The notes beneath the pieces are model-generated. The model did no database searches, was not told the DNA's origin, and saw nothing but the letters and a program-made list of their open reading frames with translations. From assembly GCA_963810495.1 (NCBI GenBank), contig CAWENP010000004.1, forward strand, positions 12,860-76,859: a stretch of 64,000 nt of DNA, read 5' to 3'. Positions within the stretch are counted from its first letter, which is position 1, and each line of letters opens with the position of its first letter. Positions 7,561 to 60,467 of the stretch are shown in pieces. Source of the DNA: an uncultured delta proteobacterium. GTDB taxonomy: Bacteria > Desulfobacterota > Binatia > Binatales > Binataceae. A program made the position numbers and the translations under genes.

Positions 7561-7852
7561 GATGAGCACTTCGATGGAACAAACGAATTTGGCTGCCGCG
7601 GACCCAGTGAAGACTTGGGGATTGCTTGTCGCCCTGTTGCTGATTGGCACCTTGGCACTGGCGCTGGGTCTGCCTCGAGGCCTGGCGCTGTGGGTCATCT
7701 TTGCCGCCGCGATCGCAGAAGCCTATGTTATCGGCCGCTACTATATGCGCCTCCGATCTGAAGACGTGCTGATATACATCCTGGCCCTGCTTCCCGTGAC
7801 GCTGGTTATCGTTCTCGCATTCGTGCTTATTCCGGACATCGTGAGGCATTAA
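7553..7852 (+). CDS. Small three-TM membrane protein, candidate oxidase subunit IV (CtaF/CoxD-like)
   Basis: 99 aa with 3 predicted TM helices. It overlaps the coxC stop and lies between two subunit-III genes. Confidence 0.4.
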   Translation: MDRMSTSMEQTNLAAADPVKTWGLLVALLLIGTLALALGLPRGLALWVIFAAAIAEAYVIGRYYMRLRSEDVLIYILALLPVTLVIVLAFVLIPDIVRH

Positions 7853-18983: not shown

Positions 18984-19310
18984 GGAACGAGCGCGTTAGA
19001 CTTCGTCGGCCGCGATGATCGTCGCTTGAACAGGACCGTTGTCGGCGATGTACTTCGAGATTTCCTGTGCGGTCTTTGCCAGGTCACGGCTGGGCTCCCA
19101 CCGTCGTGAGCCTACGGGTGTGCGGTTGAATAGCGGGTCACTTTTAAACAGCCTAACCTCAACGGCACGTACAGAACACCGCGCATCTCTGAGAAAACCC
19201 AGAATATGGCGCCGCTGGATGGCCGTTCCGGGAACAGCCCACACGGTAGACATGAGCCCATCTCCTTCACTTCGATTTAGGGCTGGCTATCACAGTATTC
19301 TTGCGCTGGT

Positions 19311-31141: not shown

Positions 31142-31313
31142 GAGGGAACAAAACCTGAGGTTCGGACGGTTAACAGGGTTGGAGCATCGTTTGAGTGCTC
31201 AATTCGTAAAGGTTATGCTCCTGATAGTGTCCGAGTCCTGACGCTTCAGGTCTTGGGGGACCAGATGCGGTTAATGGCTGGATATTTTGGCCGAACAATC
31301 GGGGACCGGCGAG

Positions 31314-31355
31314 CGCCGGGCGCGCCGCGTTTGCGGCGCGCCCGGCGTTTGTGTT
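31314..31355 (+). terminator. Rho-independent terminator or attenuator between the DUF1302 and DUF1329 genes
   Basis: Perfect 15-bp stem CGCCGGGCGCGCCGC / GCGGCGCGCCCGGCG with a 4-nt loop, followed by TTTGTGTT...TTTTT. Confidence 0.7.
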
Positions 31356-31406
31356 AGTGGCGTTTTTAGGTTCCCGCAAAGCATTACGGTAAGGAGGGAA
31401 AGAAGC

Positions 31407-32919: not shown

Positions 32920-34228
32920 ATGATTCATTTCTCGGGCCGCGTTCGGGTCCTGCTGCTGTTCGGTGCGGCGACCTGCGCGTTAGCGGCGCTCGCGATGGCC
33001 GAGTCGACGCCGTCTCCATACCAATTGATCGACGCCCACTTTGCGATGACCGTTACCTTGCTCGCCAATGGCGAGGTGCTGATCGTGGGTGGCGGCGACA
33101 ATCATGTCTTCGGCGACCAATCTCGCGGAAATTTACAATCCCGCGACCGATGCCTTCACGCCGGCGGGCAGCGGCCTGATGCCCATCGAGCGCACATATC
33201 ATACGGCGACCCTGCTCAAGGACGGCCGGGTGCTGATCGCGGGCGGGATGAATCGCATGGGCAAGGCGCTCGACAGCGCAATCCTATTCGATCCCGAAAG
33301 CGGCAAGTTCATCCCAACTGGCAGCATGGCCGAGCCGCGTTACGCCGCCGCCGCCACGCTGCTGCCTGACGGTCGCATCCTCATCAGCGGCGGCGCCTCG
33401 ACCTCGGAGGGCTACGCGGGCGCCAACCAGGAGAAGCAAGAGGAACAATCGCTTGACACTGCAGAACTCTACGACCCCGGGACCGGCAAGTTCTCGCCCG
33501 CAGGCAAGATCGAGCGCGTCTACGACCTCACCAGCAACAAAATCATGATGCGTGCGAGCATGACCACGGCGCGCCGCGAGCATAGCGCGACCCTGATCAC
33601 GGCCGGCCCGCTAAGCGGGCGGGTGCTGATTGCGGGCGGGATCGGCGACAAGAACAAGCCGATCGCAAGCGCCGAGTTGTACGACCCGGCAACCAACACC
33701 TTCAAGGCCACCGGCGACATGACGGTCGCGCGCACCTATCAGGGCGCCACCGCGCTGCGTGACGGGCGGGTGTTTATCGCCGGCGGCACCGACGCCAGCG
33801 ATCAGGCTCTCGCCACCGCCGAACTCTATGATCCCGCCATCGGCAAGTTTGCGCTCACTCCGGACCCCATGCAGCACGCGCGCTACCGCCAGGTCGCAGT
33901 CCTGCTCCCTGACGGCGACGTGTTGCTGGCGGGAGGAGCGAGCAACGCGGGCGTGCTGGCAAACGCCGAGATTTTCGATCCGCGGACCGGCAAGTTTCGG
34001 CCCACGGGACTGATGAAGGACTACCGGATGGCGGCGGGCGCAGTGCTGCTGCATAACGGCACTGTCTTTATCGCGGGCGGGTACAACAATCGCCCGACGT
34101 ACGCGCCAGGCGCACTCAGCATGGGTTCGACGTCGGTATCGTTCAGGGTGCTCAACACGGCCGAAATCTATAACCCGATGAACGGACAGTTCGTCGACAC
34201 GCGCTCGCTCGGACACGGCCCCGGCTAG
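32920..34228 (+). CDS. Secreted Kelch-repeat beta-propeller protein (galactose-oxidase-like fold) with an apparent frameshift near 33100
   Basis: Signal peptide and the first blade (LLANGEVLIVGGGD) are in frame 1. Six further blades (LLKDGRVLIAGG, LLPDGRILISGG, LRDGRVFIAGG, LLPDGDVLLAGG, LLHNGTVFIAGG) are in frame 2, beginning at SSATNLAEIYNPATDAF. Confidence 0.65.
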
Positions 34229-34286: not shown

Positions 34287-34832
34287 TTGAACATCAGATC
34301 GAAGTGCTTCACGCTCGTCGCCGCGATCTCGTTGCTCCAGGCATGCACCGCTGGCGCGCCGCAGTTCGCGGCGCCGGAACACAACCCGCCGGCCTCGACC
34401 ACCACAGCCCAGGGCGATGCCGCTATGGACGCACAAAGGCCGGCCGCATCTCTCGAGAAGGGACAGATAGAAGTGACCGGCGTGTGGCGGGGAAAATCCT
34501 CGGCCGAGTGCGCCATGCTCATCCCCGATGAGACGCGATGCGGCGCCGTCAACGACATCACTCTCACGCTGCTGCAGCAGGGCGCCAAGGTGGGCGGTTT
34601 CTATAAGTGCAGCTACGGCAACATGGACTGCCGCAACGGCAACGAAACCGGCAAGGTCGCCCTGGGCACGATGGGCACTTACCTCCTCCAGATGCGGGTG
34701 ATGATGCCGGACGGATCGGACTGTATATTCAACGGCCGGCCCAAGAGCGACGCGATCGAGGGCAGCTACCTGTGCCTGCAGGGCGGCGGGCTGATCGAAC
34801 GCGGCATCTGGCGGGCCCGCCGCAGTTACTAG
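34287..34832 (+). CDS. Hypothetical Cys-rich lipoprotein
   Basis: Lipobox LLQAC. A degraded partial copy lies at 40040-40250. Confidence 0.5.
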   Translation: MNIRSKCFTLVAAISLLQACTAGAPQFAAPEHNPPASTTTAQGDAAMDAQRPAASLEKGQIEVTGVWRGKSSAECAMLIPDETRCGAVNDITLTLLQQGAKVGGFYKCSYGNMDCRNGNETGKVALGTMGTYLLQMRVMMPDGSDCIFNGRPKSDAIEGSYLCLQGGGLIERGIWRARRSY

Positions 34833-34898
34833 GTCAGCCGTTTTTTCAGATAGTGCTTCTGATGGCCGCGAGGGTAGTCGGGATGGGTGCCGATGATC

Positions 34899-35423
34899 TC
34901 ATACCGCGCCGCGACGTCCGCTCGTCTTCGATTCTTCCCCCGGAGCGCAAAAGGCCGTCGACATAGACCCTGCCGAAGTGGGCGGCCGGAACATCGCGGA
35001 TCTTAGTGCTGCTGGAAGTCCTGCGGATGGACGCCCTGCCGACGCCGTCACGCGGATGTCACGCGCCGGCAATCCCATCGCGAGCAGTGCCAGATATAGC
35101 GGAATTCTACGATCCAGCCTGATCGTGAGCACGTTGCTATCCGAAGAGGGCTCAGTGAAGACGATCTCGGCCGGCGCGACTCCGTGACTCTGCGCGTATG
35201 CATCCGCGATCCATACTGCGGCACGCGGATTAGTTGGCAGATATACGGCGCCCATCTTTGCTGCTGTAAGAGCCACCAGCCGAAGGTTCTTGACGTTGAG
35301 ATAATAGTATTCTCTGGCAAAAATGCTGTGCACTATCAGTTCGGCCGGCAAGATTATCGCGGCAAGCGCGATGAGAATCACACGGCAACGAACTGATAAT
35401 CGGCTGAACTGTCGCATTGCCAT
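34899..35423 (-). CDS. Membrane-anchored protein with a TadE/TadG-like N-terminal pseudopilin-type domain; hypothetical
   Basis: N-terminal hydrophobic segment LIALAAIILPAELIVHS followed by YYLNVKNLRLVALTAAKMGAVY. This resembles the TadG N-domain pattern of the neighbouring gene at 36378-37586. Weak assignment. Confidence 0.3.
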   Translation of the reverse strand: MAMRQFSRLSVRCRVILIALAAIILPAELIVHSIFAREYYYLNVKNLRLVALTAAKMGAVYLPTNPRAAVWIADAYAQSHGVAPAEIVFTEPSSDSNVLTIRLDRRIPLYLALLAMGLPARDIRVTASAGRPSAGLPAALRSAMFRPPTSAGSMSTAFCAPGEESKTSGRRGAV

Positions 35424-35438
35424 CAGCAGCCTACTCTC

Positions 35439-35608
35439 CTACTGCTGATCGCGCGCCCACTCTTCGACCGCCTCGAGGCTAAACCGCCAGTCGCTACCAA
35501 TACGGAAACCCGGCAATTTTCGTTGTCTCAACAGCCGATAAATCGTGGTCTTGTGAATGTGCAGAAATTCCGACAATTCTGCCACGGTTAAGTATTTGCC
35601 TTGCGTCA
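35439..35608 (-). CDS. Small HTH_17 (excisionase/MerR-like, BldC-like) DNA-binding protein, copy 1
   Basis: My own translation: MTQGKYLTVAELSEFLHIHKTTIYRLLRQRKLPGFRIGSDWRFSLEAVEEWARDQQ (56 aa). Not in the ORF track. Confidence 0.6.
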
Positions 35609-35690
35609 TATCAGTCACTCCACGATGAGCATGCCTCGGCAGCGAATTGATAATCGGCTGAACTTTCGATTTGCCATCAGCAGATGCTCC

Positions 35691-35894
35691 TCAAGTATCG
35701 GCCCCTATCTGATCGAGCTGCCACTGTTTAATCGATTCAAGACTAAACCGCCAGTCGCTGCCAATCCGAAAGCCTGGCAGTTTTCCCTGCTTGAGCATCC
35801 GATAAATCGTAGTCTTATGAACCTGCAGATATTCCGACAATTCGTCGACGGTTAGATATTTGATTTGCATCATGCGAATCACTTCACCGTTCAC
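35691..35894 (-). CDS. Small HTH_17 (excisionase/MerR-like, BldC-like) DNA-binding protein, copy 2
   Basis: MQIKYLTVDELSEYLQVHKTTIYRMLKQGKLPGFRIGSDWRFSLESIKQWQLDQ; about 70% identical to copy 1. Confidence 0.65.
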   Translation of the reverse strand: MNGEVIRMMQIKYLTVDELSEYLQVHKTTIYRMLKQGKLPGFRIGSDWRFSLESIKQWQLDQIGADT

Positions 35895-36377: not shown

Positions 36378-37586
36378 CTATTGCGACAGGCGCAGAAGGA
36401 TCTCCGAAGCGATGGTCTGAAAGACGCCCTGCAAATCGGCGGCGGTGGGCGCGAAGACCGCCTGTCCCACCGGTTCGTTGGGGTTGAACGTGGAGCTGGC
36501 AGGATCATTGGCGATTTGCTGAAGAAACGCCTGACTTATCGTGTTGCCCAAGCCGATCGAGTAAATCACGATATTCTGCGAGCGCATGCTGTTGGCAACC
36601 TGAACCGCGCGATACATAGCGTCGTTGGAGATGTTGGCCATGCTCAACGTCTCCATTGTCCCGGTTTGCTGTGAAGGGAAACTTGTCGCACCACAACTGG
36701 CGCCGTTGCCGTTAGTCGGATCCATGAAAGAGAAATTGCTACACCAACCCAGGGCATTCTCGGGAGGGGAGCAGCCGCCAACGTTGAGCAAGGTGGACGG
36801 AGGGCAGTTCAGAGTGTCCTGAACGGTGTTGGCCCAGCCGTCGGTAAAGAAGACCGCCACTTGGACCACGTTCTCGCCCGCCGCCACAGGGATGCTGACA
36901 ATCTGAGCCTGTCCGTCCAGCAATCCGCCCTGCGAAAAGGTGGCCCCGCCGAACCGCATCGCGTTGACCGCATTGGTTATCGGAGTCAGGAAATTAGTCC
37001 CTATGGGTACATCGACACTCGCGACCGACGAGAAACTGACGTCCGCGATCTGATCGTTGGCATTGTCGAAGTAAGTCAGAAAATTGTCGACAGCGGGCGG
37101 CAGCGCCTGCGCTCCGCCATTGAGATTCATGGAGCCAGATCTGTCCAACACCAGCGACATGATGAGCTTGGGTCGCGTCGTCTGGGCGCTGGAACTAACC
37201 TGCAACGTTTGAAGCCCCGACAGCAGGCGGAGAAAGAAGGTGTTGATCGTGGCCGTGGCGTTGACGTTTACCACCGCGTTGTTGTTGGCGTCCGTAGTGA
37301 TGGCGACATTGAACGCCGGCGGGCTAAAATCTCGCCCACTCCCCGATCCATAGTTGGTATTGAACGCGCTCTGCGCGATCGCCGTGGCCTGGGCCTGCCC
37401 CTGGCTGATGTTGCGCATGGCCGCAAGCGCGGCGGCATCGACAGCCTTGGAGAGTTTCGCCCGCGTGACAAAGGCGAAGCCAAGGTCAACCCCAAGACCC
37501 ATGAACAGAATGAGAACGGGCAAGCTGAGTGCAAACAGCATGAAGACTTGGGCACGCTGGTGTCGTCTATTGTTAGTTAGCTGCAA
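36378..37586 (-). CDS. TadG-like Flp-pilus assembly protein with a von Willebrand factor A domain
   Basis: TadE/G-like N-terminus (FMLFALSLPVLILFMGLGVDLGFAFVTRAKLSKAVDAAALAA) and a vWA MIDAS motif (LVLDRSGSM). Confidence 0.75.
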   Translation of the reverse strand: MQLTNNRRHQRAQVFMLFALSLPVLILFMGLGVDLGFAFVTRAKLSKAVDAAALAAMRNISQGQAQATAIAQSAFNTNYGSGSGRDFSPPAFNVAITTDANNNAVVNVNATATINTFFLRLLSGLQTLQVSSSAQTTRPKLIMSLVLDRSGSMNLNGGAQALPPAVDNFLTYFDNANDQIADVSFSSVASVDVPIGTNFLTPITNAVNAMRFGGATFSQGGLLDGQAQIVSIPVAAGENVVQVAVFFTDGWANTVQDTLNCPPSTLLNVGGCSPPENALGWCSNFSFMDPTNGNGASCGATSFPSQQTGTMETLSMANISNDAMYRAVQVANSMRSQNIVIYSIGLGNTISQAFLQQIANDPASSTFNPNEPVGQAVFAPTAADLQGVFQTIASEILLRLSQ

Positions 37587-37607
37587 GAGAGTATCCTCCG
37601 CCGGATC

Positions 37608-38144
37608 TTAGAAATACGCCGCCTCGTACAATGTCGACGGCATGGCCAGCTTCAGCAGATTCTGAATCGGAGTTATTGGCTGGTATGAGTAGAATATCTC
37701 CGTTATGTAGATCGTCTGGCCGAGCTGTAGCATGGCGGCTGCCGACGATGGCACGCTCGCCGTGTTTCCCACTCCACTCCCCACCCTGCTATTTTGCGAA
37801 ACGCCCCCCTCCGAGAACTGGTTGGTAATTGTATAGACCTTGTTGATGTTGGTGACCGAGGTGATGATCACCTCTCCGTTGCTGCTCAAATTCAACGGCG
37901 AGTCCCCCGCAATCACGGCAGCGGCGGAGGCCGACAAAGTCGTCCCGCGCGATGCCAGGTTGGAACCTTGTCTGGATAGGCTGGTCATGACCTGCTCGTC
38001 GTGGATCGCGCGGCTGAAATCGACCAACATGCAGAAGAGGACGAGCATCAGGGCCGCGATGAGAGCAAACTCCACCGCCGCCTGGCCGGATTCGGCCGCT
38101 GAGATCTTTCTGCCTACTGAACCGGGATGCCATGTGTGTCTCAT
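37608..38144 (-). CDS. TadE-like pseudopilin
   Basis: SGQAAVEFALIAALMLVLFCMLVDFSRA is the classic TadE N-terminal motif. Confidence 0.7.
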   Translation of the reverse strand: MRHTWHPGSVGRKISAAESGQAAVEFALIAALMLVLFCMLVDFSRAIHDEQVMTSLSRQGSNLASRGTTLSASAAAVIAGDSPLNLSSNGEVIITSVTNINKVYTITNQFSEGGVSQNSRVGSGVGNTASVPSSAAAMLQLGQTIYITEIFYSYQPITPIQNLLKLAMPSTLYEAAYF

Positions 38145-38158
38145 GCCGCTACTCCCAA

Positions 38159-38640
38159 CTAGTTCGTCTCGCTGGCAGGAAAAGGCTCGTTTTTGAAACT
38201 GACGCTCGACGTGAAAGTGTACGTTCCATTCGGAAAACCACGTGCAACCATTGGCGTCATCAGCTTGAGGTTACTGGTGACCGAGACCGTTACGGTGTCT
38301 CCCGGTCCGCCCGCGCTGCCGCTGCCGCCCAGCAAGCTCGAAATCTGAATGTTCGTTACCTGCTGGCCAAAGGCCGCCTGTTGAAGTGTCGCGATGATCG
38401 AATTCACGCGTGAGAGAGACTGCCCGGGGTTTTTGGGATCCGGGAGATGATTCCCCGTGGACGCGAACCGGCCGGCCTCCTGCACCGCGTTCTCAACTTC
38501 CATTTGCACGAGGAACAGGTGCCCGAAATCGAACACCGCGAAGATCAGAAAGAAGAACAACGGCGCGACCAGGAGAAATTCGACCATCGCCTGACCCCTG
38601 ATTGATCGAGGCATGCGAGCTCGAAGTGCCAAGCGCAGCT
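38159..38640 (-). CDS. TadE-like pseudopilin (second copy)
   Basis: RGQAMVEFLLVAPLFFFLIFAVFDFGHLF. The track ORF extends upstream to 38770. The internal Met at 38640 fits the family's N-terminus. Confidence 0.6.
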
Positions 38641-38989
38641 TGCCTGCTCTGCGGGATCTCAGATCATTCCCGCCTTGACGGAAGAAAGTCGCGGAGCTGC
38701 AGCTCTTAGCGCTTACTACAGTCATCTTGCCGCTCCCTCCGGTCTTTAAAGATAAGAAATAAGCTAACATAAATACTTTAAAGATGTTAAGACAAAGATG
38801 AACTCTTTATTTCATGCAGAGTGTCAGAATTTGACGTAATTCAACCTCGTTGGGGTCGCCAACGTGAAAACGGAATGTTTGACGTTCCTGGGTCGGCTAG
38901 AGCGTAAGAGATCTCTGGAGTCTCACACTTCCAGCCATGAAGGCTAAACTACTCAGAGCGTCCAGCAGAGAGACTGATTTTTCGCAGTT

Positions 38990-39685
38990 TTAGCGGCGAG
39001 CCGCCGAATTGCTCCGAAGAATTAAATGACGCTCGCCACGCGCGAGGAATCGCTCTTCGGTCATATCGGCAAGTATCTTGGATACCATCGGCCGCGAGCT
39101 TCCAATCATCTCTGCAAGGTCTTCCTGGCTCAGCTCGGGAACGATCAAAACCCCGCGCTTTTCCTCGACGCCAAAACGGGTGACGAGGTCCCGGAGCACG
39201 AACTCCAGTCTTTTTCGAAACGAAAGCCCCAAGAACCGTGCGAGGCGCTCAAACGTCGCCGACCATGTTGCATTAAGACTCTCCAGCAGTCTGATCGCGA
39301 TTTCAGGATCGAGTCTTCGAAGCATTTCGACCAAGTGCTCGCGGCTGAACAGTCCCACGATGCATTTGGTCAAGGCCTGGGCCTCGAGAGCATGATGACG
39401 CCGACCATCGCTAGCCACGTTTTCGATGATTCCCAGGGGTTCGCCCGGACGTGCGATGAACAAAAAGCTTCTGCTGCCATTGGCGAGAGGCAGATATAGC
39501 TTGACCAGCCCTTTGAAGACTAAAAAAATCAAATCCGCCGGCGCGCCGGAGACAAAAATAGTCGCTCGCCTCTCGTACGTCACAAAGGTGCAGCGATTTT
39601 CAACTTCGGCTGCCAGCTCTTTGGGCAGAGCCCAGGATTCCAGTTGCTGTTCAAGACGGAGACGAAATTCCGAAGGATTACTCAT
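38990..39685 (-). CDS. Crp/Fnr-family transcriptional regulator (paralogue 1)
   Basis: cNMP-binding beta-roll and a C-terminal HTH (EDLAEMIGSSRPMVSKILADMTEERFL). Lies upstream of an AT-rich region and the tad-like cluster on the same strand. Confidence 0.88.
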   Translation of the reverse strand: MSNPSEFRLRLEQQLESWALPKELAAEVENRCTFVTYERRATIFVSGAPADLIFLVFKGLVKLYLPLANGSRSFLFIARPGEPLGIIENVASDGRRHHALEAQALTKCIVGLFSREHLVEMLRRLDPEIAIRLLESLNATWSATFERLARFLGLSFRKRLEFVLRDLVTRFGVEEKRGVLIVPELSQEDLAEMIGSSRPMVSKILADMTEERFLARGERHLILRSNSAARR

Positions 39686-40039
39686 GGCGCGTCCGTCTTA
39701 GAATGGGACCTACCTGGTTTAGACTTGGACCGCCGCGTCGCGTGAAAGGGAGCCTCCGAAGGAAACCATTCCAGCGCTGCGCGACGATTACCCGGAGTTT
39801 TGAACACCCTAAGCCTGTCGCTCAGCCGCCCGACTAACACCTTCCGGAACCTGTCACGCAGGCCAACGGGCCTGGTGGTGTTTGTCTGACACGGGGAGCC
39901 ACAGCAGGCTAAAAGCTAACACAGAATGATATTGCTTAACAAGGGCCAGATTGTCATAATTAAGCTATCCCGCAGGATATAGGGCCGCAGTACGCGGCAT
40001 CGGCGTGTACGCCGCCGGCCGCCACCGCGGACAGCGCAA

Positions 40040-40250
40040 GGCGACGCCGCTATGGACGCACAGAGGTCGGACGCCACTCTTCAGAAGGGCAGATAGACGC
40101 GACCGGCGTGTGGTGCGGGGAATCCTCGGCCGAGTGCGTCACGCTCATCCCGACGCGACGCGCTCGAGAGTGCACTACCCTATGCCTGCAGGGCGGCGGG
40201 CTGATCGAACGCGGCATCTGGCGAGCCTGCCGCAATTACCAGGTGCTGAT
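40040..40250 (+). pseudogene. Degraded, internally deleted copy of the lipoprotein gene at 34287-34832
   Basis: Nucleotide-level similarity to 34420-34500 and 34770-34830, including TGCCTGCAGGGCGGCGGGCTGATCGAACGCGGCATCTGGCG, with the middle roughly 240 bp missing. Confidence 0.6.
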
Positions 40251-40258
40251 TACGGAAA

Positions 40259-41434
40259 TCAGACAGACAGACCGTAGACGCGGCGGACATTGTCGCCCAA
40301 GACGTCGCGCCGGCGCTGCGGGTCGGCTATCTTCGCGCCGAATTTCTCCAGCTCCTCGATATAGTTGCCGGTATGGTCGGGATGCGGGAAGTCGGTCGCC
40401 CAGAAAAAGCGATCGCTGCCGCACAGATCGACCATCGCGGGCAGTGATTTTTCGTCCGGATCGGCGGACACCCAGACGTTGCGCCTGAAATAGAAGCTTG
40501 GCTTTTCCTTGAGCGGAACGCCGCGTCCCATGACGCTGTCGTAGACCGCGTCCATCCGGTCGAGCCAGTATTGAATCCATCCGGCTCCGACTTCAAGAAT
40601 CACGATCTTGAGCTTCGGGAACTTGTCAAAGGTGCCATATTGCATGAAACTCGCGAGCGCATGGCGGATCGCGTCGGACGCGGTGACGTTGAGGAACCAA
40701 TGCTGCTTGCGCACATACTCCTTGTCGTAACGGCCCGGCCAGCACCATTGCGGCTCGAGTGAGACATGGATGCCGAGCGGAACGTCGAGTTCCTGCGCTT
40801 TGGCGAAAAGCACGTTGTTGTCGGTATGCGCGTGGGGCTTGCGATTCATCGTGAACTGCACGACCCATCCGCCCTTGTGGCCAGCCTTGACGGCGCGTTC
40901 GAGCTCGTCGGCGGCGGCCTTCGGATCACCCAATGACAAGTGCGCCACCGGAATCAGACGTCCGCCACTATCCGTACACCAATCGGCAATCCAGCGGTTG
41001 TATGCCCGACACATCGCCTGCGCATAGTCCACGTCGTCGCACTCGGTTTCCCAGGTCAGCTCGAGGCTTGGGTAAATGATGGCGGCGTCGAGGCCCTCGA
41101 GATCGAGTCGCTCGATACGCTCCTTAGCGTCGGCGGCGCCGAGCGGAAGCCGCTCGCCATATTTTATCCGCGGATCGAACTCACCTTTTTCACGGGTCAC
41201 CTGGCCCATCTGTGCAACCGCGCCGAAGTTGCCGCCCCGGCTGACGCGCGAGGGCACACCGTTGATTTCGAGATACTCAAGTCCGTCCTTGTCTTGCTTC
41301 ATGCGGACCGCATTAGCCCGGTACTTGGCCTCGCAGTACTCCTCCCAGCATTTGACCGATTCCAAGATGTGACCGTCGGCGTCGACGGCGCCAGGGTATT
41401 TAAGCTTGTGAATTTTCTCTTCGACTCGTGCCAT
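40259..41434 (-). CDS. Amidohydrolase-2 family metal-dependent hydrolase/decarboxylase (ACMSD/LigW-like)
   Basis: DADGHILE near the N-terminus and a TDFPHPD signature near the C-terminus. Confidence 0.75.
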   Translation of the reverse strand: MARVEEKIHKLKYPGAVDADGHILESVKCWEEYCEAKYRANAVRMKQDKDGLEYLEINGVPSRVSRGGNFGAVAQMGQVTREKGEFDPRIKYGERLPLGAADAKERIERLDLEGLDAAIIYPSLELTWETECDDVDYAQAMCRAYNRWIADWCTDSGGRLIPVAHLSLGDPKAAADELERAVKAGHKGGWVVQFTMNRKPHAHTDNNVLFAKAQELDVPLGIHVSLEPQWCWPGRYDKEYVRKQHWFLNVTASDAIRHALASFMQYGTFDKFPKLKIVILEVGAGWIQYWLDRMDAVYDSVMGRGVPLKEKPSFYFRRNVWVSADPDEKSLPAMVDLCGSDRFFWATDFPHPDHTGNYIEELEKFGAKIADPQRRRDVLGDNVRRVYGLSV

Positions 41435-41567: not shown

Positions 41568-42542
41568 TCAAACCGTGCCCAGCCTTAGGATTTGCCGTGC
41601 GTTCTTCTCGTAGATCATCTCGCGTTCGGACGCGGTCAGCCCGAGCCCGTCGATGAACTCGATGGTCCATTCCATGAATCGAGTGCTACGGACGAAGTAG
41701 TCGCTGCCAAAGACAATGTGCTCGAGGCCAACCAGCTCGCGCGCGCAATTGAACGCGCCGCGGTTCCATCCCAGCGCTGTGTCGACGTATAGCTTGCGCA
41801 TCCACTCGCTCGGTCGCCGCGCAGGTTGCTTGTATCCGGGGAAGAACCCCGGCACGTCGAAAACGAGGTCGGTCCGCCGCGCCAGAAACGGCAGCGTGCC
41901 GCCCAGGTGCGCCAGGACCAGGATGATATCAGGGAAGCGCTCGTAGAGCCCGCCGCAGATCAGCCGGTAGGCGGAGAGCGTGGTATCGAAGGGAAACGAG
42001 AGCAGCGGCCCCGGTTGATCGTCGCGATAGCAGGGCGAGTTGGAGGGATGCATGAACACCGGCACGCCCCGCCGGTTGGCTTCCTCCCAAAATGGGTAGT
42101 ATTCGGCGGAGTCGAGATAGCGCCCGCCGATATTCGACGTGACCAGTACGCCCACGAAACCGAGTTCATCCAGCGCACGCCTCATCTCCTCGAGCGCGAG
42201 CTTCATGTTGTTGAAGGGCAGATGGGCGAACCCTCTGAAGCGCTGCGGGTCGCGGCGGCAGGCGGCCGCGATCGCGTCGTTCACCAGCCGGCACAACTCG
42301 GGTGCATGCTCGTCTACGCGGCTGTAAACCGGTGGACAGGACAAGATCTCGATATCGATGCCGGCGCGGTCGATGTCGGCAAGCCGTCCGGCGTGGTCCC
42401 ACGCCGGCAGAGTCGTACCGGCCCATGTGGCGAGCAATCTCCTCTGCTCGTCCTGTCCCAGCTCAATTGCGTCGGGGTAGAAGTGTTTCGCCGCGCGAAA
42501 AAATCCGCCCGGGAAGGCATGACAATGGAAATCAATTTTCAT
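41568..42542 (-). CDS. Amidohydrolase-2 family metal-dependent hydrolase/decarboxylase
   Basis: MKIDFHCHAFPGGFF N-terminal metal-binding motif, SNIGGRYLD, and a C-terminal FGSDYF. Confidence 0.75.
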   Translation of the reverse strand: MKIDFHCHAFPGGFFRAAKHFYPDAIELGQDEQRRLLATWAGTTLPAWDHAGRLADIDRAGIDIEILSCPPVYSRVDEHAPELCRLVNDAIAAACRRDPQRFRGFAHLPFNNMKLALEEMRRALDELGFVGVLVTSNIGGRYLDSAEYYPFWEEANRRGVPVFMHPSNSPCYRDDQPGPLLSFPFDTTLSAYRLICGGLYERFPDIILVLAHLGGTLPFLARRTDLVFDVPGFFPGYKQPARRPSEWMRKLYVDTALGWNRGAFNCARELVGLEHIVFGSDYFVRSTRFMEWTIEFIDGLGLTASEREMIYEKNARQILRLGTV

Positions 42543-42730
42543 GGCTGAACGCGCCCTTGGCGCGGAAATCCAAATTCCTCGAGCTCGATGTTTACCACCG
42601 GCTCAAATAATCGTGAAGGACGGCTACGTCAACATCCTGCGGTCCGATTCCAGCCGTCGCGTAGGCGCGCGCGCCGGCGTCCCCCCGGGCCGCCGAGATA
42701 GTCAAAATATGGCGGCGAAGAATCGAAAAG

Positions 42731-42832
42731 CGGTTGATAGCCCCCGGCGAGGCGATGCTCAGCGCCAGAGTCGATCGGCCGCTTCACAAGACGGTAGCCC
42801 GTCCGCACTGCTGGTTCCGACGAAATCAAGCA
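42731..42832 (+). repeat. Direct repeat of about 100 bp, copy 1 (about 85% identical to 44963-45062)
   Basis: GCGGTTGA...CGAGGCGATGCTCAGCGCCAGAGTCGAT...CAAGACGGTAGCCCGTCCGCACTGCTGGTTCCGACGAAAT versus the second copy, read directly. Confidence 0.6.
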
Positions 42833-42874
42833 AAACCAACACTTCTCGAGTGTTGATCAAAAATCCGCCCTTCA

Positions 42875-43010
42875 TAGTGCATTAAAGGTAGAGAGAGTTA
42901 AAAAAGACTTAATTTTTCTTGGTTGATACATCGCGCACAGATAGGCTAAGTGTGTATCTGGTGTTCATTTTCTATCGTTACTGATCCTAGTGGTCGTTCA
43001 CGGTCGTTCG
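42875..43010 (+). repeat. Left copy of an inverted repeat pair of about 140 bp (AT-rich, promoter-like) bracketing a 4.6-kb segment
   Basis: ATAGTGCATTAAAGGTAGAGAGAGTTAAAAAAGACTTAATTTTTCTTGGTTGATACATCGCGCACAGATAGGCTAAGTGTGTATCTGGTGTTCATTTTCTATCGTTACTGATCCTAGTG. It aligns at about 85% with the reverse complement of 47540-47673. Confidence 0.7.
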
Positions 43011-43036
43011 ACATAGAAAAGGGAAAGGCAGACGCG

Positions 43037-43285
43037 ATGGCGCGCGTGGCGGCTCGACTTGAGCAGTTCCTGACCATCAAGGATGTGGCGGATCTACTGA
43101 GCGTTCATCCGATGACCGTCTACAGACTGCTCAAGCAGGGACGTTTGCCGGGTGTTCGCCTCGGCGGTGTCTGGCGGTTTAGCCGTCAAGCGATGGAAAG
43201 ATGGGAAAGCGACCAGGAAAGACGTACTTTGGGAACCTTTTCCAACTACCGTAATTATCCCCGTAGCGATCGATCCGCGAAATAA
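43037..43285 (+). CDS. HTH_17 (excisionase/MerR-like, BldC-like) DNA-binding protein
   Basis: LTIKDVADLLSVHPMTVYRLLKQGRLPGVRLGGVWRFSRQAMERWE. ATG at 43037 after a GGGAAAGG Shine-Dalgarno. Confidence 0.65.
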   Translation: MARVAARLEQFLTIKDVADLLSVHPMTVYRLLKQGRLPGVRLGGVWRFSRQAMERWESDQERRTLGTFSNYRNYPRSDRSAK

Positions 43286-43605
43286 ACGGGGCCAATATGT
43301 TGGAGAAAAACGGACCCATGCTCAGGTTGTTCTATACCGTGGCCGATGCAGAAGCGCTTAAGGAATCGCTTGCAGACTGCATCTGTTCTCTATGCAAACG
43401 GAAGTACCGTAATCATCGCGACGCCGATCATCTTTTCTTCGACCTACATCGAAGATCTGATCCCGAAGACGCAAACTAAGCCGTAGCTCAAACGGCGGAG
43501 AACCATACCAGCCGCCAGGAGTGGGCCTATCTCCGAGGCGCGCCGGTCGTGCTTTCAGAACTACCCCACGATCGGGGAGAAAAGGTTCAGACGGAGGCAT
43601 CGAGA

Positions 43606-44055
43606 ATGACGCAGCCCAAATGGAAAGTGGCGCTCTTCAAACGGAAATCGGAAATCCAGCCCAAGGAGCTCATTCAATTTATATGGAATTTGCCTGCCAC
43701 AGAGTTCATTGAGCCGCCAGCGCTCAGTTCCGCTCCGGCCGAGGGTAACAATGCGTCGCCAGGCCAAGCCGCCCGGGCTCCCAGCGAGGAGCGCAACTAT
43801 CTGGCCAAGGGGTCCAGGGTGAGCGCCAAGCTCAGCTTCCAGGGGCCGGCCCGGATCGACGGCGAGTTCGAAGGTGAAATCATCGCCACGGACAATGTGA
43901 TTCTCGGCGACAATGCGGTGGTTACCGCCGAAATCAAGGCGGCGTCGATCATCGTGGCCGGCAGGTTTTCTGGTGACATGACCGTCAGCGACCGCATTGA
44001 GATTCGTCCTTCTGCCAGGGTCTCGGGCAAGCTAACACTAAGGACAGCAGGATGA
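43606..44055 (+). CDS. Bactofilin-domain protein (free cytoplasmic paralogue)
   Basis: The beta-helical repeat pattern ARIDGEFEGEIIATDNVILGDNAVVTAEIKAASIIVAGRFSGDMTVSDRIEIRPSARVSGKL fits the bactofilin (DUF583) consensus. GGAGG Shine-Dalgarno 8 nt before the ATG at 43606. Confidence 0.7.
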   Translation: MTQPKWKVALFKRKSEIQPKELIQFIWNLPATEFIEPPALSSAPAEGNNASPGQAARAPSEERNYLAKGSRVSAKLSFQGPARIDGEFEGEIIATDNVILGDNAVVTAEIKAASIIVAGRFSGDMTVSDRIEIRPSARVSGKLTLRTAG

Positions 44056-44942
44056 CCGAGTCGACGCGCAGGCAGGCTCCGGTTCCGATACAGCAGCGGC
44101 AAGAGCCCTGTGCACAGTTGACCGAGATGCTCGCGGCGTACGGGCTTTCTTCGGACATGGCCGCGGAAATCGAAGCTCACCTGATCCCCGTCACATTTGA
44201 AAAGGGAGCGGTCGTGTTCCTGCGTGGAACTTCGGCTGACCTCCTCTTTTGCGTTCTCAAAGGGTTCGTCAAGCTCTATTTGCCTCTCGGCGACAACAAC
44301 AGGACGCTCGTCGATCTTGCGCGCCCAGGTGATCTCATAGGATTCGTCGATGAGATGGATTCCAGAGGTCGTCGGCAGGTGCTCGAGGCGCAAGCTTTAA
44401 CGAGATGCTCGATAGGGCTGCTGAGTCGTGAGCTTTTGGCACAACTGCTACGCAAAATCGATCATGAAACAGTGGTTCGGTTACTCGAGCACTTCAACAC
44501 CGCCTGGTCGACGCTCTTCGCGCGGTACGTCGCCTTCATAGGTTCTTCGTTCCGTGAGCGGCTCGAACAGGTGTTTTACAGCCTAGGCGAGCGATTCGGC
44601 TCCCGCGATAAGCGGGGTACTCTACTGGTACCAGAGCTAAGCCACGAAGACCTGGCAGAAATGATCGGGAGCTCTCGACCTATGGTCAGCAAGCTGATCG
44701 TCGATATGAGCAACGAGGGTTTGCTTGAACGCGGCGAGAAGCGCCGTTTCATTCTTCGGCCGAAGGCGCACAGGTCTACGTCTATTCTTCCTGACGGCCT
44801 TCAAACCCGCATCGCGCCCAATGCTAGTTCTAAACAGGTCGCTGGGGTTTTCGCACCTTTGTCCTCCGCGATTCGCGCGCGCACATACGTGCCAGGGCGG
44901 TCTACCGGGCCGCGAAACAATTCCTACCGATCGCCCGTCTAG
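44052..44942 (+). CDS. Crp/Fnr-family transcriptional regulator (paralogue 2) with a C-terminal extension of about 60 aa
   Basis: About 55% identical to Crp-1 (EDLAEMIGSSRPMVSKLIVDMSNEGLL). Start overlaps the bactofilin stop (ATGA). Confidence 0.85.
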   Translation: MTESTRRQAPVPIQQRQEPCAQLTEMLAAYGLSSDMAAEIEAHLIPVTFEKGAVVFLRGTSADLLFCVLKGFVKLYLPLGDNNRTLVDLARPGDLIGFVDEMDSRGRRQVLEAQALTRCSIGLLSRELLAQLLRKIDHETVVRLLEHFNTAWSTLFARYVAFIGSSFRERLEQVFYSLGERFGSRDKRGTLLVPELSHEDLAEMIGSSRPMVSKLIVDMSNEGLLERGEKRRFILRPKAHRSTSILPDGLQTRIAPNASSKQVAGVFAPLSSAIRARTYVPGRSTGPRNNSYRSPV

Positions 44943-44962
44943 CCGAGCCAGGCTCTCCGGCG

Positions 44963-45062
44963 AGCGGTTGAGGATCCCTCGCGAGGCGATGCTCAGCGCT
45001 AGAGTCGATACGGGCGCTACTCAAGACGGTAGCCCGTGCGCACTGTTGGTTCGACGATTTAA
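44963..45062 (+). repeat. Direct repeat of about 100 bp, copy 2 (immediately 3' of Crp-2)
   Basis: See copy 1. Confidence 0.6.
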
Positions 45063-45186
45063 TTGCCGGCCGAGTAGCCCTCGATGGCGGCGATTGCCGG
45101 TCCACCGCGCAAGGGGTGACCGAGGGGAATGGCGAGATCACCGATGCGCCAGACGTATCGCCCGAAGGTAGCGCGCGGGTCGCACA

Positions 45187-47457
45187 CTAGCGCATGATCT
45201 GCATCAGCCCGCCTGGCATCGAGTACTGCGTGACGTTGTCAAATTCGCGGGAAACTTCAGCGTTGAACATGATCAGGCGGCCACTCGGGTCTGTGCTGTT
45301 TCCCAACGTTGCGTGCTGATTTTGCAGGTCCCAGGTAGAAGCGGCAAATCGTCCGTAAATCGTTTCACCATCGGTTCCCGGAACTTGTCGCGGAAAGTAG
45401 GCGCTCAATGTGACTTTCCAAAGGTTGCGGTTAGAGTCATATAGGTCCTCCCACAAGCTTCGGGCGGTCTCCTCGTCGATATATTCAATTCGCTTGGCGT
45501 AACAATAGCCGGCAGCCTCAGATGGAATACGGTGAATATTGATCACCCAGACGTTTCTGAGGCTCCACCTTCCCCAGGAAGGCCGCGCGAACCCCAGCGG
45601 CATATCATACTGACGCGGAAAATCAGACACCGCCTCGCTGAGGTTGACGAGGGCCAGCACTTTCATGTTTCGTAGGTAATCGGCATCAAAATTCGCCAGG
45701 CCCCCGTTGAACCCCGGTTTCTGATCGTCGTGCGTCCAATCGGTACCAAGCAAAGGTGCGCAGCGGGCGCTTACCGAAACAGCTACGGAACGCCTGAGCG
45801 CTGGAAGAAATATAAAATTTAACTCATTCTGCTGAGCGTTCTGCGGAAGGATGTCGAGATCGGTCGTATACTTGGCCTGCTCAGGTTCTTCGGTCATTAG
45901 CCACTGTGTGTAAAAGGCGCCGTCGGCACGCGGGTCCGTCCTCGGCACTCCCAGGTCGGTATTGAAAGCGAGCTGTCTGTAGACAAAGGCCCATTTGGCC
46001 GTGGTCGCGTTGCCAAACCGGTCCAACATTGTCACGTTCCAAAGCCCTCCACCGGGCATGCCCACTGCCAGGTGCGGGCTATATGTGTACCACAAGTCGG
46101 CGAGAATTTCGTATCCCTTGTCCGGTCCTTGAGGAACGGGAAACGGCTCGCCCGCGACATAGTTCGCGATGTCGTTGCGTCCATTGGGCAGATGAACTAC
46201 TCGAACGTCCCCGCTGTACTTCTCACTTGCCTCCCTGAAACTCCGCGGTGCCACGATATGGATCGGCGGGCCGACGTCCATCTCGATATCATTTGGCATC
46301 CTGAGGCCGTACTTGCCCGAGAACAGGGCGATCATACCGTCGGGCATGAAAGCCCTGTATTGCTCCCAGTTTGAAATAGTAATTCTTGTACCCGCCCGGA
46401 CGGTGCCCTCCGTCCCTTGTGAGTTACTGTCGATATCCGACTGCTTGACGAGAGGAGAAGGCAGCTCTGCGTTAGCTATTCGCGGCACCTTGGGTTCGAC
46501 TGGAAGCGGGGACGCGTGGGTCCAATGGCCAGCAGCCGAGGCAATCGCCTCTACGTGTGTTAAGGGAAAGACTGATCGCCCGCTCCCCGGTGCGACGCTC
46601 CCGTCCTTTCGCGCACTCCGGACGGTATAGTCAGGTGCGACTGGAGCGGGAACACGATGTGGGATCTCGATCATGAGGTTCGAAGGCGAAACCGGTGCGT
46701 TGGGTGCAGCAACAGATGATGCACTAGTCGTCGCGCTAGTAGGGCCGTACGTGGCTCCATTTAAGGCGGCGAATGCGCCGGCCGTCGGCACCTTAACAGC
46801 AAAGGTCGAGAGGGCCTCACTTGGTGCGCGCGACGCAGGCGCTGTGGATTCGGGTGCGATGGGCCGTACGGTGGCTCGGCTAGTTTCGCGGTGCGCAAAA
46901 TGAGCTCCACTCAGAGGCGACAGCTCCCGAGTGGCATGGGCAGGTTCCGCTTTCGTACCAAGCGTGGCTACTCTGACCGATTCGTCTGCAATATTGCCGC
47001 GCCAGTCGTGCAGATAAGCGATTAAAAGGGTTCCGCCTAACGCCGCAAGAGCCGCGCCGGGTACGGCGACCCGCCACATACGTGCTCGTTTGGGAGAGAC
47101 GGTGAATTCAGGGTCCTGCGTTCCTTGTCTTACCTCTTGAGGGTCCTGCGCTGCTTGTCCTACCACTTGGGGCGCGATCAAATTGCCAAACACCTTGGCA
47201 GATGGGTAAATCTCGATGCGTTCGCTGCCAGTTATGTCGCCCCTGACTGTTCCCGACACAATGATTGAGACTGCCTTTATGTCACCAGTTATCATGGCGC
47301 TCTCGCCGATGACGACGCTGTCATTGGCGGCAATCGTGCCATCGAAGTGACCATCGATTCGGACCTTGCCGCTCGCTGTGGAGCCCTCCGGCAAGTGCCA
47401 TTCCGGCGTTGAAATCTGCTCAAGCCGCATACTCGGTCGCTTTTTGAACAGCGCCAT
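45187..47457 (-). CDS. Fusion protein: N-terminal bactofilin domain, single TM helix, Ala/Pro/Ser-rich linker, C-terminal DUF1329 domain
   Basis: Residues about 25-110 (VRIDGHFDGTIAANDSVVIGESAMITGDIKAVSIIVSGTVRGDITGSERIEIYPSAKVFGNL) are paralogous to the protein at 43606-44055. The TM helix is VAVPGAALAALGGTLLIAYL. The C-terminal 440 aa are about 50% identical to the protein at 31407-32726 (ISNWEQYRAFMPDGMIALFSGKY...NYVAGEPFPVPQG...MPGGLMQIMR). Confidence 0.8.
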   Translation of the reverse strand: MALFKKRPSMRLEQISTPEWHLPEGSTASGKVRIDGHFDGTIAANDSVVIGESAMITGDIKAVSIIVSGTVRGDITGSERIEIYPSAKVFGNLIAPQVVGQAAQDPQEVRQGTQDPEFTVSPKRARMWRVAVPGAALAALGGTLLIAYLHDWRGNIADESVRVATLGTKAEPAHATRELSPLSGAHFAHRETSRATVRPIAPESTAPASRAPSEALSTFAVKVPTAGAFAALNGATYGPTSATTSASSVAAPNAPVSPSNLMIEIPHRVPAPVAPDYTVRSARKDGSVAPGSGRSVFPLTHVEAIASAAGHWTHASPLPVEPKVPRIANAELPSPLVKQSDIDSNSQGTEGTVRAGTRITISNWEQYRAFMPDGMIALFSGKYGLRMPNDIEMDVGPPIHIVAPRSFREASEKYSGDVRVVHLPNGRNDIANYVAGEPFPVPQGPDKGYEILADLWYTYSPHLAVGMPGGGLWNVTMLDRFGNATTAKWAFVYRQLAFNTDLGVPRTDPRADGAFYTQWLMTEEPEQAKYTTDLDILPQNAQQNELNFIFLPALRRSVAVSVSARCAPLLGTDWTHDDQKPGFNGGLANFDADYLRNMKVLALVNLSEAVSDFPRQYDMPLGFARPSWGRWSLRNVWVINIHRIPSEAAGYCYAKRIEYIDEETARSLWEDLYDSNRNLWKVTLSAYFPRQVPGTDGETIYGRFAASTWDLQNQHATLGNSTDPSGRLIMFNAEVSREFDNVTQYSMPGGLMQIMR

Positions 47458-47539
47458 CTCGATGCCTCCCGTCAGAAACCTAGCCAGGTTCGCGAATAAA
47501 ACATCAAACGGCGATGCGGCCCAAAAAAGATTCTCGGAA

Positions 47540-47673
47540 CTGACCGCGCACGATCACTAGGATCAATAACGATAGAGAATGAACAGCAGACATACATCTA
47601 GCCTCTCTGTGCGCGATGTATCAATTCAAAGGGACCAGATCGTTTTTAACTATCTTTATCTTTGATGCACTAT
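47540..47673 (-). repeat. Right copy of the inverted repeat pair
   Basis: Reverse complement is ATAGTGCATCAAAGATAAAGATAGTTAAAAACGATCTGGTCCCTTTGAATTGATACATCGCGCACAGAGAGGCTAGATGTATGTCTGCTGTTCATTCTCTATCGTTATTGATCCTAGTG. Confidence 0.7.
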
Positions 47674-47748
47674 ATTGTGCGAATGTTCATACGGAACCCG
47701 CCGAAATCCTGATACGCTCGGCCTCGGAGGAGCGCCGAAAGAATCTAG

Positions 47749-49005
47749 ATGGCCCTGACCGGCAATAGAATCAACTCCGCCTCCGTAACAGGCGAAGATA
47801 TCGACTCGGCTCGCGCGTGGCTGACCGTCGCAGCGGGATTCCTCGCCTGCTTCACCTTGTTCGGCGTGGCGTATAGCTTTGGCGCGTTCTTCAAGCCGAT
47901 GGCGCAGGAGTTCGGCGCCACTCGCGAGGCCACCTCGGCGATCTTCTCGATCACCGCCGCGCTCTACTTCGCACTCAGCCCGCTCACCGGATACCTGTCC
48001 GACCGTTTTGGGCCGCGGCCCGTGGTCGGGGCGGGCGCGCTCGCGACGGGCGGCGGAGTCATCCTCACGGCATTCATCCCGCGCCTGTGGTTCGCGTACT
48101 TCACCTACAGCCTGGGCGTCGGCATCGGCGTCTCGTGCTGCTACGTGCCGTTGGTCGCGATGATCGCGGGATGGTTCGATCGGCGGCGCAACACGGCGCT
48201 GGGCCTCGCCGTCGCGGGCATCGGGGCCGGCACTCTCACGATACCGCCGCTCTCGGGCGAGCTCATCGTGCATCTGGGATGGCGCCGCGCGTACGTGATC
48301 CTGGGCGTTGCGGCAGCCGCGCTGCTGATGCTATGTGCGGCGCTATCGAAACGGCCGCCGGCAGGAGCGCAGCACGTCGCGCGTCCGCGCTTCGGAGAAT
48401 TCATCCGCGAGCGCAACTTCATCGTGCTCTACGTCTCGTCGGCGCTGGCCAACGTCGCAACCGCGATTCCATTCGTCTTTCTCCCGGTTTACGCGCGCGA
48501 GCACGGCATCAGCGAAGTCGCCGCGGCCGCGCTGATAAGTTTCATCGGGCTGACCAGCATGCTCGGCCGCGTCGGTTTGGGCACGCTCGCCGACCGCGTC
48601 GGGCTCATCCGGCTCTACCAGGCTGCGGTGCTCGCGCTCGGGCTCTCGTACTTCATCTGGCTCGCAGCGCATGGCTATCCGATGATGGTGCTGTTCGCGC
48701 TCGCGATGGGTGCGAGTTACGGCGGCTACGTCGCGCTCAATCCGTCGGTGGTGGCGGAGTTGTTCGGCGTGGCCGGGATGGGCGTGGTGCTGGGGACGCT
48801 CTACACCAGTATCGCAGCGACCGCCCTCTTCGGCCCGCCGATGGTCGGCGCGATCATCGACCGCACCGGAAGCTATCAACTGGGGATTCTTTTCACTATC
48901 GCGACGACGCTCGCGGGATTCCTGGTGCTGCTCGCGCTCAAGCCGCGAAAGGTTCCGGCCGACGAAAATGAAGGGAGCGCGGCGCTGGCGCATTCCGAAA
49001 TCTAG
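47749..49005 (+). CDS. MFS transporter (oxalate/formate-antiporter or monocarboxylate-type)
   Basis: 418 aa with 12 TM helices and the MFS motif GYLSDRFGPRPVV between TM2 and TM3. Confidence 0.85.
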   Translation: MALTGNRINSASVTGEDIDSARAWLTVAAGFLACFTLFGVAYSFGAFFKPMAQEFGATREATSAIFSITAALYFALSPLTGYLSDRFGPRPVVGAGALATGGGVILTAFIPRLWFAYFTYSLGVGIGVSCCYVPLVAMIAGWFDRRRNTALGLAVAGIGAGTLTIPPLSGELIVHLGWRRAYVILGVAAAALLMLCAALSKRPPAGAQHVARPRFGEFIRERNFIVLYVSSALANVATAIPFVFLPVYAREHGISEVAAAALISFIGLTSMLGRVGLGTLADRVGLIRLYQAAVLALGLSYFIWLAAHGYPMMVLFALAMGASYGGYVALNPSVVAELFGVAGMGVVLGTLYTSIAATALFGPPMVGAIIDRTGSYQLGILFTIATTLAGFLVLLALKPRKVPADENEGSAALAHSEI

Positions 49006-57620: not shown

Positions 57621-57673
57621 GACGATCCGCGCGTTGAAGACGGGGCGGGGGCGGCGCGGGCCGGTAACGAGCC
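57621..57673 (-). repeat. 53-bp dispersed repeat, copy 1 (identical except for one indel to 60352-60405)
   Basis: GACGAT(T)CCGCGCGTTGAAGACGGGGCGGGGGCGGCGCGGGCCGGTAACGAGCC. On the minus strand it starts GGCTCGTTACCGG, an ISL3-like terminal inverted-repeat beginning. Confidence 0.6.
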
Positions 57674-60351: not shown

Positions 60352-60405
60352 TGACGATTCCGCGCGTTGAAGACGGGGCGGGGGCGGCGCGGGCCGGTAA
60401 CGAGC
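60352..60405 (-). repeat. 53-bp dispersed repeat, copy 2, directly 3' of the ISL3 transposase remnant
   Basis: See copy 1. Confidence 0.6.
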
Positions 60406-60467
60406 CAGGCGACGCGGTGGGGCTGGGTGCTGGTAAGCACCGGGCCCGCTGGCGCGTGCCGGCGACC

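Follow-up and report, generated by a model that had tools for sequence, protein, structure and literature searches.

Why would a segment of 4.6 kb, holding four genes, be bracketed by two copies of the same noncoding sequence of about 140 bp in inverted orientation? The question is raised by a stretch of 64,000 nucleotides (nt) of DNA from an uncultured delta proteobacterium of the family Binataceae (contig CAWENP010000004.1 of assembly GCA_963810495.1, positions 12,860 to 76,859), which we call the window and in which positions are counted unless another contig is named. A first-pass annotation of this DNA had offered two answers: that one promoter/operator region was duplicated and co-regulates both of the transcription units concerned, or that the repeats define an invertible or mobile cassette. 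Our analysis favours the first of these, since the copies lie in sense orientation directly 5' of genes of the same module in three lineages and since their number tracks the number of transcription units; the cassette is not supported. The two arms are probably paralogs, copied from a single upstream control region of ~140 bp that most likely consists of promoter and operator DNA, through which both units would be co-regulated.

Two copies of one element, each at the 5' side of an inward-reading gene

The segment comprises the following features.

42868..43012, + strand: left copy of the element ("HTH-type"), ending 24 nt 5' of the HTH_17 start codon (repeat search, blastn, nhmmer)
43037..43285, + strand: HTH_17 gene, 82 amino acids (aa), a single-domain MerR-like winged-helix protein (Pfam HTH_17, E=4e-16)
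43606..44055, + strand: free bactofilin gene, 149 aa by the gene calls of the strain contigs, with an open frame from a GTG at 43549 (Pfam Bactofilin, E=6e-20)
44052..44942, + strand: gene of a Crp/Fnr-family regulator (Crp-2), 296 aa (Pfam cNMP_binding and HTH_Crp_2)
45187..47457, - strand: bactofilin-DUF1329 fusion gene, 756 aa (Pfam Bactofilin and DUF1329)
47458..47538, - strand: the fusion gene's own 5' leader, outside the repeat, between the right copy and the start codon, with no counterpart in the left copy
47539..47679, - strand: right copy of the element ("fusion-type"; repeat search, blastn, nhmmer at 150 bits)

A repeat search of the window found a core of 83 nt in which the arms (42923-43005 and 47542-47624) are inverted and 87% complementary and, adjoining it, a second block of 48 nt (42860-42907 and 47640-47687, 77%), a small indel shifting the register between the two. 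Both blocks are merged by blastn into a single match of 42874-43009 with 47673-47537 (79.6% over 137 columns, E=7e-29), and an nhmmer profile places the limits of the arms at 42868-43012 (+) and 47539-47679 (-), each with 150 bits. The outer ends are fuzzy, with similarity fading gradually past 42868 and 47679. The inverted repeat described in the first-pass annotation is thus real and about as long as was stated there; the identity of about 85% given for it is slightly high, the core reaching 87% and the full length ~80%, both of which lie above 70%.

Chance similarity of the arms is excluded, since an exact 19-mer common to both occurs twice in the 64-kb window where 0.02 occurrences are expected, and a 22-mer occurs twice where 0.00 are expected. 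Exact-word and nhmmer profile searches agree on two copies of the element in the window. The arms are poor in GC (0.41, against 0.61 for the window as a whole).

Each copy lies 5' of an inward-reading gene, as had been noted: the left one before the HTH_17 gene, which starts at 43037 on the plus strand, and the right one before the fusion gene, which starts at 47457 on the minus strand. The gene content previously assigned to the segment (HTH_17, a free bactofilin, Crp-2 and the fusion) likewise agrees with the Pfam assignments. The left copy continues directly into a ribosome-binding-site-like AAAGGGAAAGG and then into the ATG of the HTH_17 gene, and an unrelated leader of 81 nt separates the right copy from the ATG of the fusion gene. 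The start-proximal 50-60 nt of this leader (~47463-47521) are kept upstream of the fusion orthologs on two contigs of relatives, L008 and L010, of which L010 is without the element.

The element in relatives with other gene layouts

The HTH_17 protein, used as an anchor, is present on many metagenome contigs. Six of them (L001-L006) come from near-identical strains, in which the arms are 96-100% identical to those of the window. The window and all six independent strain contigs share one gene order in one orientation, namely amidohydrolase(-) / HTH_17(+) ... fusion(-) / MFS(+), where the flanking genes, identified by Pfam, are as follows.

41568-42542, - strand: amidohydrolase gene
47749-49005, + strand: MFS transporter gene

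Other relatives carry the same genes in other layouts (positions are those of each contig, and protein identities are to the window).

L008/L009: HTH_17 and fusion genes divergent, fusion protein 78% identical; two copies, at 7048-7192 (-) 5' of HTH_17 and at 7685-7829 (+) 5' of the fusion, with ~490 nt between them
L021: HTH_17, fusion and Crp on one strand, HTH_17 85% identical; two direct copies, at 680-824 before HTH_17 and at 4189-4334 before Crp
L020: HTH_17-fusion-Crp operon, HTH_17 65% identical; one weak copy before HTH_17 (E=1e-7)
L024: HTH_17-Crp layout with an HTH_17 homolog; one copy
L022, L023, L025: HTH_17 homologs with upstream sequence; one copy each, before HTH_17
L018/L019: HTH_17 79% identical; a weak copy, ~60 nt of the upstream half (E=7e-5)
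L007, L010: fusion orthologs alone with no HTH_17 nearby; no copy of the element

All HTH_17 orthologs for which upstream sequence is present are preceded by the element, clearly so in seven cases (the window, L008, L021, L022, L023, L024 and L025) and weakly in two (L020 and L018/L019). Every one of the 13 distinct copies examined lies 5' of a gene of the module and points towards that gene. Copy number equals the number of transcription units, being one in L020 and L024 and two in L021, L008 and the window. The three lineages that keep both copies (the window, L008 and L021) hold them in three different relative orientations: inverted, divergent and direct. A scan of metagenomes with a pattern made from the promoter block added one further locus, L022, in which the match is again upstream of HTH_17, and a scan of a genome collection with a degenerate pattern of the 5' block returned only chance AT-rich matches in unrelated phyla.

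The reading that best accommodates these layouts is a lineage-specific regulatory duplication of an ordinary kind, in a module of the Binataceae that consists of HTH_17, a bactofilin or bactofilin-DUF1329 fusion, and Crp. According to this reading, the simplest relatives would keep the module as a single HTH_17-fusion-Crp operon with one copy of the element in front, and a module divided into two transcription units would have a second copy, carried by the unit that became detached. In the window, both units (the HTH_17-bactofilin-Crp operon and the fusion gene) would then respond to a single DNA-binding factor. The best candidate for this factor is the HTH_17 protein itself, encoded directly 3' of what would be the ancestral copy and thus a putative autoregulator, with Crp-2 as a second candidate. 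Directly observed are the repeat, its orthologs and paralogs, its placement and direction in each lineage, and the lack of RNA, coding and mobility signals; that the element acts as a promoter, which protein binds it and that the units are co-regulated is what we infer here. That the arms are inverted and bracket 4.6 kb would follow from the convergence of the two units in the window, the orientation of the repeat being a by-product of gene order.

Known regulons with a duplicated promoter or operator resemble this arrangement in that the same noncoding sequence stands 5' of two units, is locked to the direction of the genes and is kept through rearrangements; the position of a regulator gene directly downstream of the ancestral copy is a further likeness. 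They differ in that the conserved stretch is here unusually long and uniform (~140 bp), is without a palindromic or repeated operator or a canonical -10, and has a regulator that is a candidate. In the uncultured phylum Binatota, the element tags the transcription units of a module that is small and uncharacterised, and it offers a concrete DNA target with which the function of HTH_17 and Crp may be probed. The practical value is modest, as the kind of duplication is ordinary.

Age and conservation of the element

The copies pair as orthologs, the one before Crp in L021 being, like that before the fusion in L008, an ortholog of the fusion-type copy. In an identity matrix, the HTH-type copies of the window and L008 are 84% identical and the fusion-type copies 83%, whereas the paralogous copies are 77% identical within the window and 64% within L008. 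Since orthologs are closer than paralogs, the duplication predates the split of the window and L008 lineages, and both copies were kept thereafter. For comparison, identity at the four-fold degenerate sites of neighbouring genes is 74-75% between the window and L008, where the element is at 83-84%, and the intergenic DNA around the element is mostly unalignable between relatives. Recognisable blocks of the element survive as far as L020, L024 and L025. The element is thus somewhat better conserved than silent sites in the comparison with L008 and equal to them in that with L021 (see below), a constraint that is real but modest on this time scale.

Conservation is not spread in the same way at all distances. 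The most deeply conserved part is the upstream half (TATAG..CATCAAAG..AGTTAAAA), followed by ATTGATA and, 18 nt on, by an invariant TA; in L018, the most distant copy, conservation is limited to the upstream half. Among close copies, the best conserved block is the 3' half (CTGTTCAT..TCTATCGTTA.TGATCCTAGTG).

Promoter signals and a candidate regulator

A -35-like hexamer can be read in both copies.

42923..42928, + strand: TTGATA, -35-like hexamer of the left copy
47619..47624, - strand: TTGATA, -35-like hexamer of the right copy

In the 11 aligned copies that were used for motif conservation, box searches and covariation, the TTG of TTGATA is invariant (11/11), as is the TA 18 nt downstream (11/11), and a stretch of A/T tracts lies just upstream of TTGATA. 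The AT-rich stretch and the hexamer that the first-pass annotation had pointed out in each copy are therefore both present, but no canonical -10 accompanies them: the region at the invariant TA reads TAAATG, TAAGTG or TAGATG and lacks one or the other of A2 and T6 of the -10 consensus. The AT-rich composition would suit a promoter region, whose presence is suggested mainly by the position of the element.

As to the regulator, an AlphaFold model of the HTH_17 protein has a predicted local distance difference test score (pLDDT) of 74. When this model was compared with the Protein Data Bank (PDB) by Foldseek, the top matches were chains of 6AMA, a BldC-DNA complex (35-41% identity, root-mean-square deviation 1.6-2.3 A, target-normalised TM score 0.66-0.75), and a phmmer search of PDB sequences with HTH_17 also ranked BldC first (6AMA and 6AMK), with a marginal E=0.009. 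RacA, Xis and RdfS fit the model nearly as well as BldC does.

BldC oligomerises head-to-tail on AT-rich promoter sites, to an extent that is variable and sometimes long, and it tolerates degenerate repeats (PMC5859096). The BldC target promoters of Streptomyces (whiI and smeA-ssfA, bound by a 68-aa MerR-like BldC; PMC5859096) are comparable to the locus studied here in that a small single-domain MerR-like winged-helix protein goes together with AT-rich sites in promoter regions. They are unlike it in that the element shows no succession of 9-bp AATTNNNN(C) direct repeats, a weak negative given that BldC accepts degenerate repeats, and in that the sequence similarity of HTH_17 is marginal, the host belongs to a different phylum and binding is here a prediction. 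A long, evenly conserved AT-rich element would suit oligomerisation of the BldC type, and we take this as a lead. One may speculate, as a possibility that we hold to be unlikely, that the 140-bp element would serve in the Binatia as an extended nucleoprotein platform for an oligomerising BldC-like HTH_17, which would autoregulate its own gene and co-regulate the fusion of a cytoskeletal bactofilin domain with a LolA-like DUF1329 domain, the free bactofilin and the Crp-family regulator. If true, this would be the first BldC-type regulon outside the Actinobacteria, and one tied to a cytoskeleton/envelope module beside Tad pilus genes.

Several results weigh against a promoter/operator function and against the regulator proposed for it. 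In neither arm does a sigma-70 consensus scan call a promoter, the -10 being non-canonical as described above; sigma-54 and sigma-28 consensus sequences, sought by eye on the alignment, are not conserved either. Crp/Fnr boxes, which the first-pass annotation had proposed to look for in both copies, are absent in canonical form (TGTGA-N6-TCACA or TTGAT-N4-ATCAA, with up to two mismatches) from all 11 copies, and NtcA and CooA-like boxes are absent as well, although the Crp-2 of this locus may have a non-canonical specificity. No conserved internal dyad or direct repeat marks an operator (k=5-8; only short AAAGA and AGAGAG..TAAA pairs were seen). Between the window and L021, the identity of the element (82-87%) does not exceed that of four-fold sites (83-84%), so that recent common descent alone may account for some of the similarity. 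The structural likeness to BldC comes with weak E-values (0.01-0.03) and from a short model of medium confidence. Finally, the copies were counted in the window and in the contigs of relatives, and a wider regulon or more copies may exist elsewhere in the genome.

Locus history and the possibility of a passive scar

The arms may alternatively be the passive scar of a segmental duplication, in which an operon and its upstream region were copied and then partly deleted; the second copy would then be young or a generic promoter, and no specific regulation would be shared between the units. We consider this unlikely, although it is the alternative with most in its favour. The history of the locus is indeed one of duplication and decay, and bactofilin, Crp and HTH_17 each have a paralog: protein identity is 51% between the free bactofilin and the N-terminus of the fusion, 52% between Crp-2 and the product of a Crp gene at 38990-39685 (Crp-1), and 47% between the 82-aa HTH_17 protein and the products of small tandem HTH_17 genes. 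The element is conserved just modestly above four-fold sites, and in L008 the similarity of the fusion-type copy to the HTH unit extends ~20 nt into the start of the HTH_17 coding sequence. Two further traces, namely a direct repeat of ~90 nt around the HTH_17-bactofilin-Crp unit and a strain-specific indel of 321 nt with a DUF1329 remnant, also point to such a history.

42729..42817, + strand: first copy of the ~90-nt direct repeat, 51 nt upstream of the left copy of the element (85-88% identity between the two repeat copies)
44963..45052, + strand: second copy of the ~90-nt direct repeat, in the interval that separates the Crp-2 stop codon from the fusion gene's 3' end

The ~90-nt repeat is confined to the contigs of this species and gave neither a folding signal nor a match in Rfam. 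The rearrangement from which the layout in two units arose probably left it behind as a scar. The indel lies right after the HTH_17 stop codon, being present in L002, L004, L005 and L006 (~10249-10569) and absent from the window (at 43284/43285), L001 and L003. About 100 nt of it match the 3' end of the DUF1329 fusion at 73% identity, in sense orientation, and it has the look of what is left of a decayed gene, with strains differing in its presence. When an HTH_17 remnant was sought between the right arm and the fusion start, the only trace was the ~20 nt of extra similarity mentioned above, in L008 only. Taken together, these traces would fit a segmental duplication of the element and the head of the operon, followed by deletions. 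No single consistent order of duplications and inversions linking the layouts of L020, L021, L008 and the window was derived.

Against a mere scar stands the fact that at least two or three lineages, now diverged and rearranged in different ways, keep both copies in orthologous pairs, and that each copy is always placed precisely 5' of a gene and points towards it. In addition, the protein paralogs of the locus, at ~50% identity, are far older than the arms, at 77-87% nucleotide identity, so that the arms were not simply carried along with the gene duplications. A duplication that was retained as a control region for both units remains the reading we prefer.

RNA, mobile and coding alternatives

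Alternatively, the element may act as RNA, either as a shared 5' leader with a riboswitch-like motif or as a small RNA gene. If TTGATA is a -35, the 3' half of the element would fall in the 5' untranslated region, and it is this half that is best conserved among close copies. However, Rfam 15 gave no match at gathering score in the whole window, nor at E<=1 in 42500-47800, and when single sequences were folded, for each arm and each strand, the result did not surpass that of shuffled sequences (z from -0.75 to -1.1). RNAalifold gave a positive covariation term (+0.84) on six copies, and on 11 copies it gave -0.56 kcal/mol with seven pairs, which amounts to no structure. The 3' half moreover carries deletions of 4, 7 and 10 nt in L024 and L025, and in L018 conservation is confined to the upstream half. 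An RNA function is accordingly a very improbable explanation.

One particular helix, UUUUCUAU/AUAGAAAA, by which the ribosome-binding site of the left copy could be masked, was rejected after inspection of the alignment, as it is not kept in L008, L021, L022 or L024.

The second answer of the first-pass annotation, an invertible or mobile cassette, is highly improbable, for all that long inverted repeats do bracket a set of genes. In such a reading the arms would serve as sites of recombination or as terminal inverted repeats, and the 4.6-kb segment would be an invertible switch or mobile cassette with HTH_17 as directionality factor. HTH_17 is an excisionase family domain, and the model of the protein resembles Xis and RdfS also. 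Yet no integrase, invertase or transposase was called by Pfam within ~10 kb on either side in the six strain contigs, and there is none among the four internal genes. The window and the six strain contigs all show one orientation with the same flanking genes, and the pair of copies runs in direct orientation in L021 and is divergent, with the copies close together, in L008/L009. An inversion would only swap two equivalent upstream regions, so the segment would be unworkable as a switch.

Nor does the element behave as the end of a mobile element would. Target-site duplications are absent, and neither outer end adjoins a direct repeat. Only two copies exist in the 64 kb, a scan of viral contigs with the promoter-block pattern and a blastn search in distant mode of the element against plasmid and phage collections gave no match, and the copies found elsewhere stand only 5' of genes of the same module. 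ARAGORN found no tRNA in the window that could point to a tRNA or att fragment. Invertible promoter switches and repeat-bounded cassettes of the fimS and hin type share with this locus the inverted repeats around a few kb; they differ from it in that the arms are here 140 bp long instead of 9-30 bp, no recombinase is present, the arms are equivalent and lie outside the genes, and relatives hold the repeat in other orientations. A false lead is thereby removed, in that the segment is not a new mobile or invertible element.

Least credible of all is a conserved short peptide encoded by the 3' half of the element in an upstream open reading frame, starting at the ATG or GTG of CTAAATG: an open frame does run from 42950 into HTH_17, and gene callers extended several orthologs to 95-106 aa, with translated peptides that look alike, but there is no codon-position bias (minor alleles 15/22/15 at positions 1/2/3), stops occur in frame a few codons after the start in the HTH-type copy of L008 and in L022 and L020 and later in the fusion-type copy of L008, L023 and L024 have no start codon, and the indels of L024 and L025 are not multiples of three.

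The genes of the segment and other repeats in the window

The fusion protein is identical to an NCBI protein from a metagenome-assembled genome of Candidatus Binataceae. Its bactofilin domain is N-terminal to a DUF1329/LolA-like domain, and this architecture is conserved in ~10 Binataceae-like clusters; a literature search found no paper naming bactofilin and DUF1329 together. Two strain contigs differ in this gene: L004 has a gap of 1 nt, and in L005 the first 1 kb, where the linker lies, contains several indels that amount to 26 gap columns. Assembly errors or else disruption at the strain level would account for them, and the other four strains retain the 756-aa frame.

The small HTH_17 genes mentioned above, of 59 and 67 aa, are arranged in tandem at 35439-35618 (-) and 35691-35894 (-), inside a tandem duplication of ~260 nt (35369-35887). 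The pair adjoins TadE/Tad/VWA pilus genes (36378-38770) and the second Crp gene (38990-39685).

DUF1329 occurs a second time in the window, in a region that is itself repetitive. The repeat search found three paralogous stretches of ~2.4 kb with 70-74% nucleotide identity (~16700-19000, 22993-25434 and 26723-29167), the latter two of which, by a Pfam scan of these two, are MMPL/RND-like genes of ~814 aa. They sit with YCF48/BNR-repeat, DUF1302 and second DUF1329 genes (25734-26741, 29255-31141 and 31287-32726), in what we take to be a DUF1302-DUF1329-BNR-RND gene cluster of the kind present in Proteobacteria, here partly triplicated.

Other repeats in the window are of smaller extent. A dispersed direct repeat (34404-34834 and 40031-40244; 83-87% over ~200-430 nt) covers the 3' part of a 181-aa open reading frame without a Pfam match, and its duplicate lies just downstream of an amidohydrolase gene at 40259-41434. 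A perfect GC-rich direct repeat of 48 nt (57626-57673 and 60359-60406, 100% identity) has its copies 2.7 kb apart. At 33055-34081, six to seven tandem repeats of ~150 nt, of the Kelch-type beta-propeller kind, lie inside the gene at 33089-34228.

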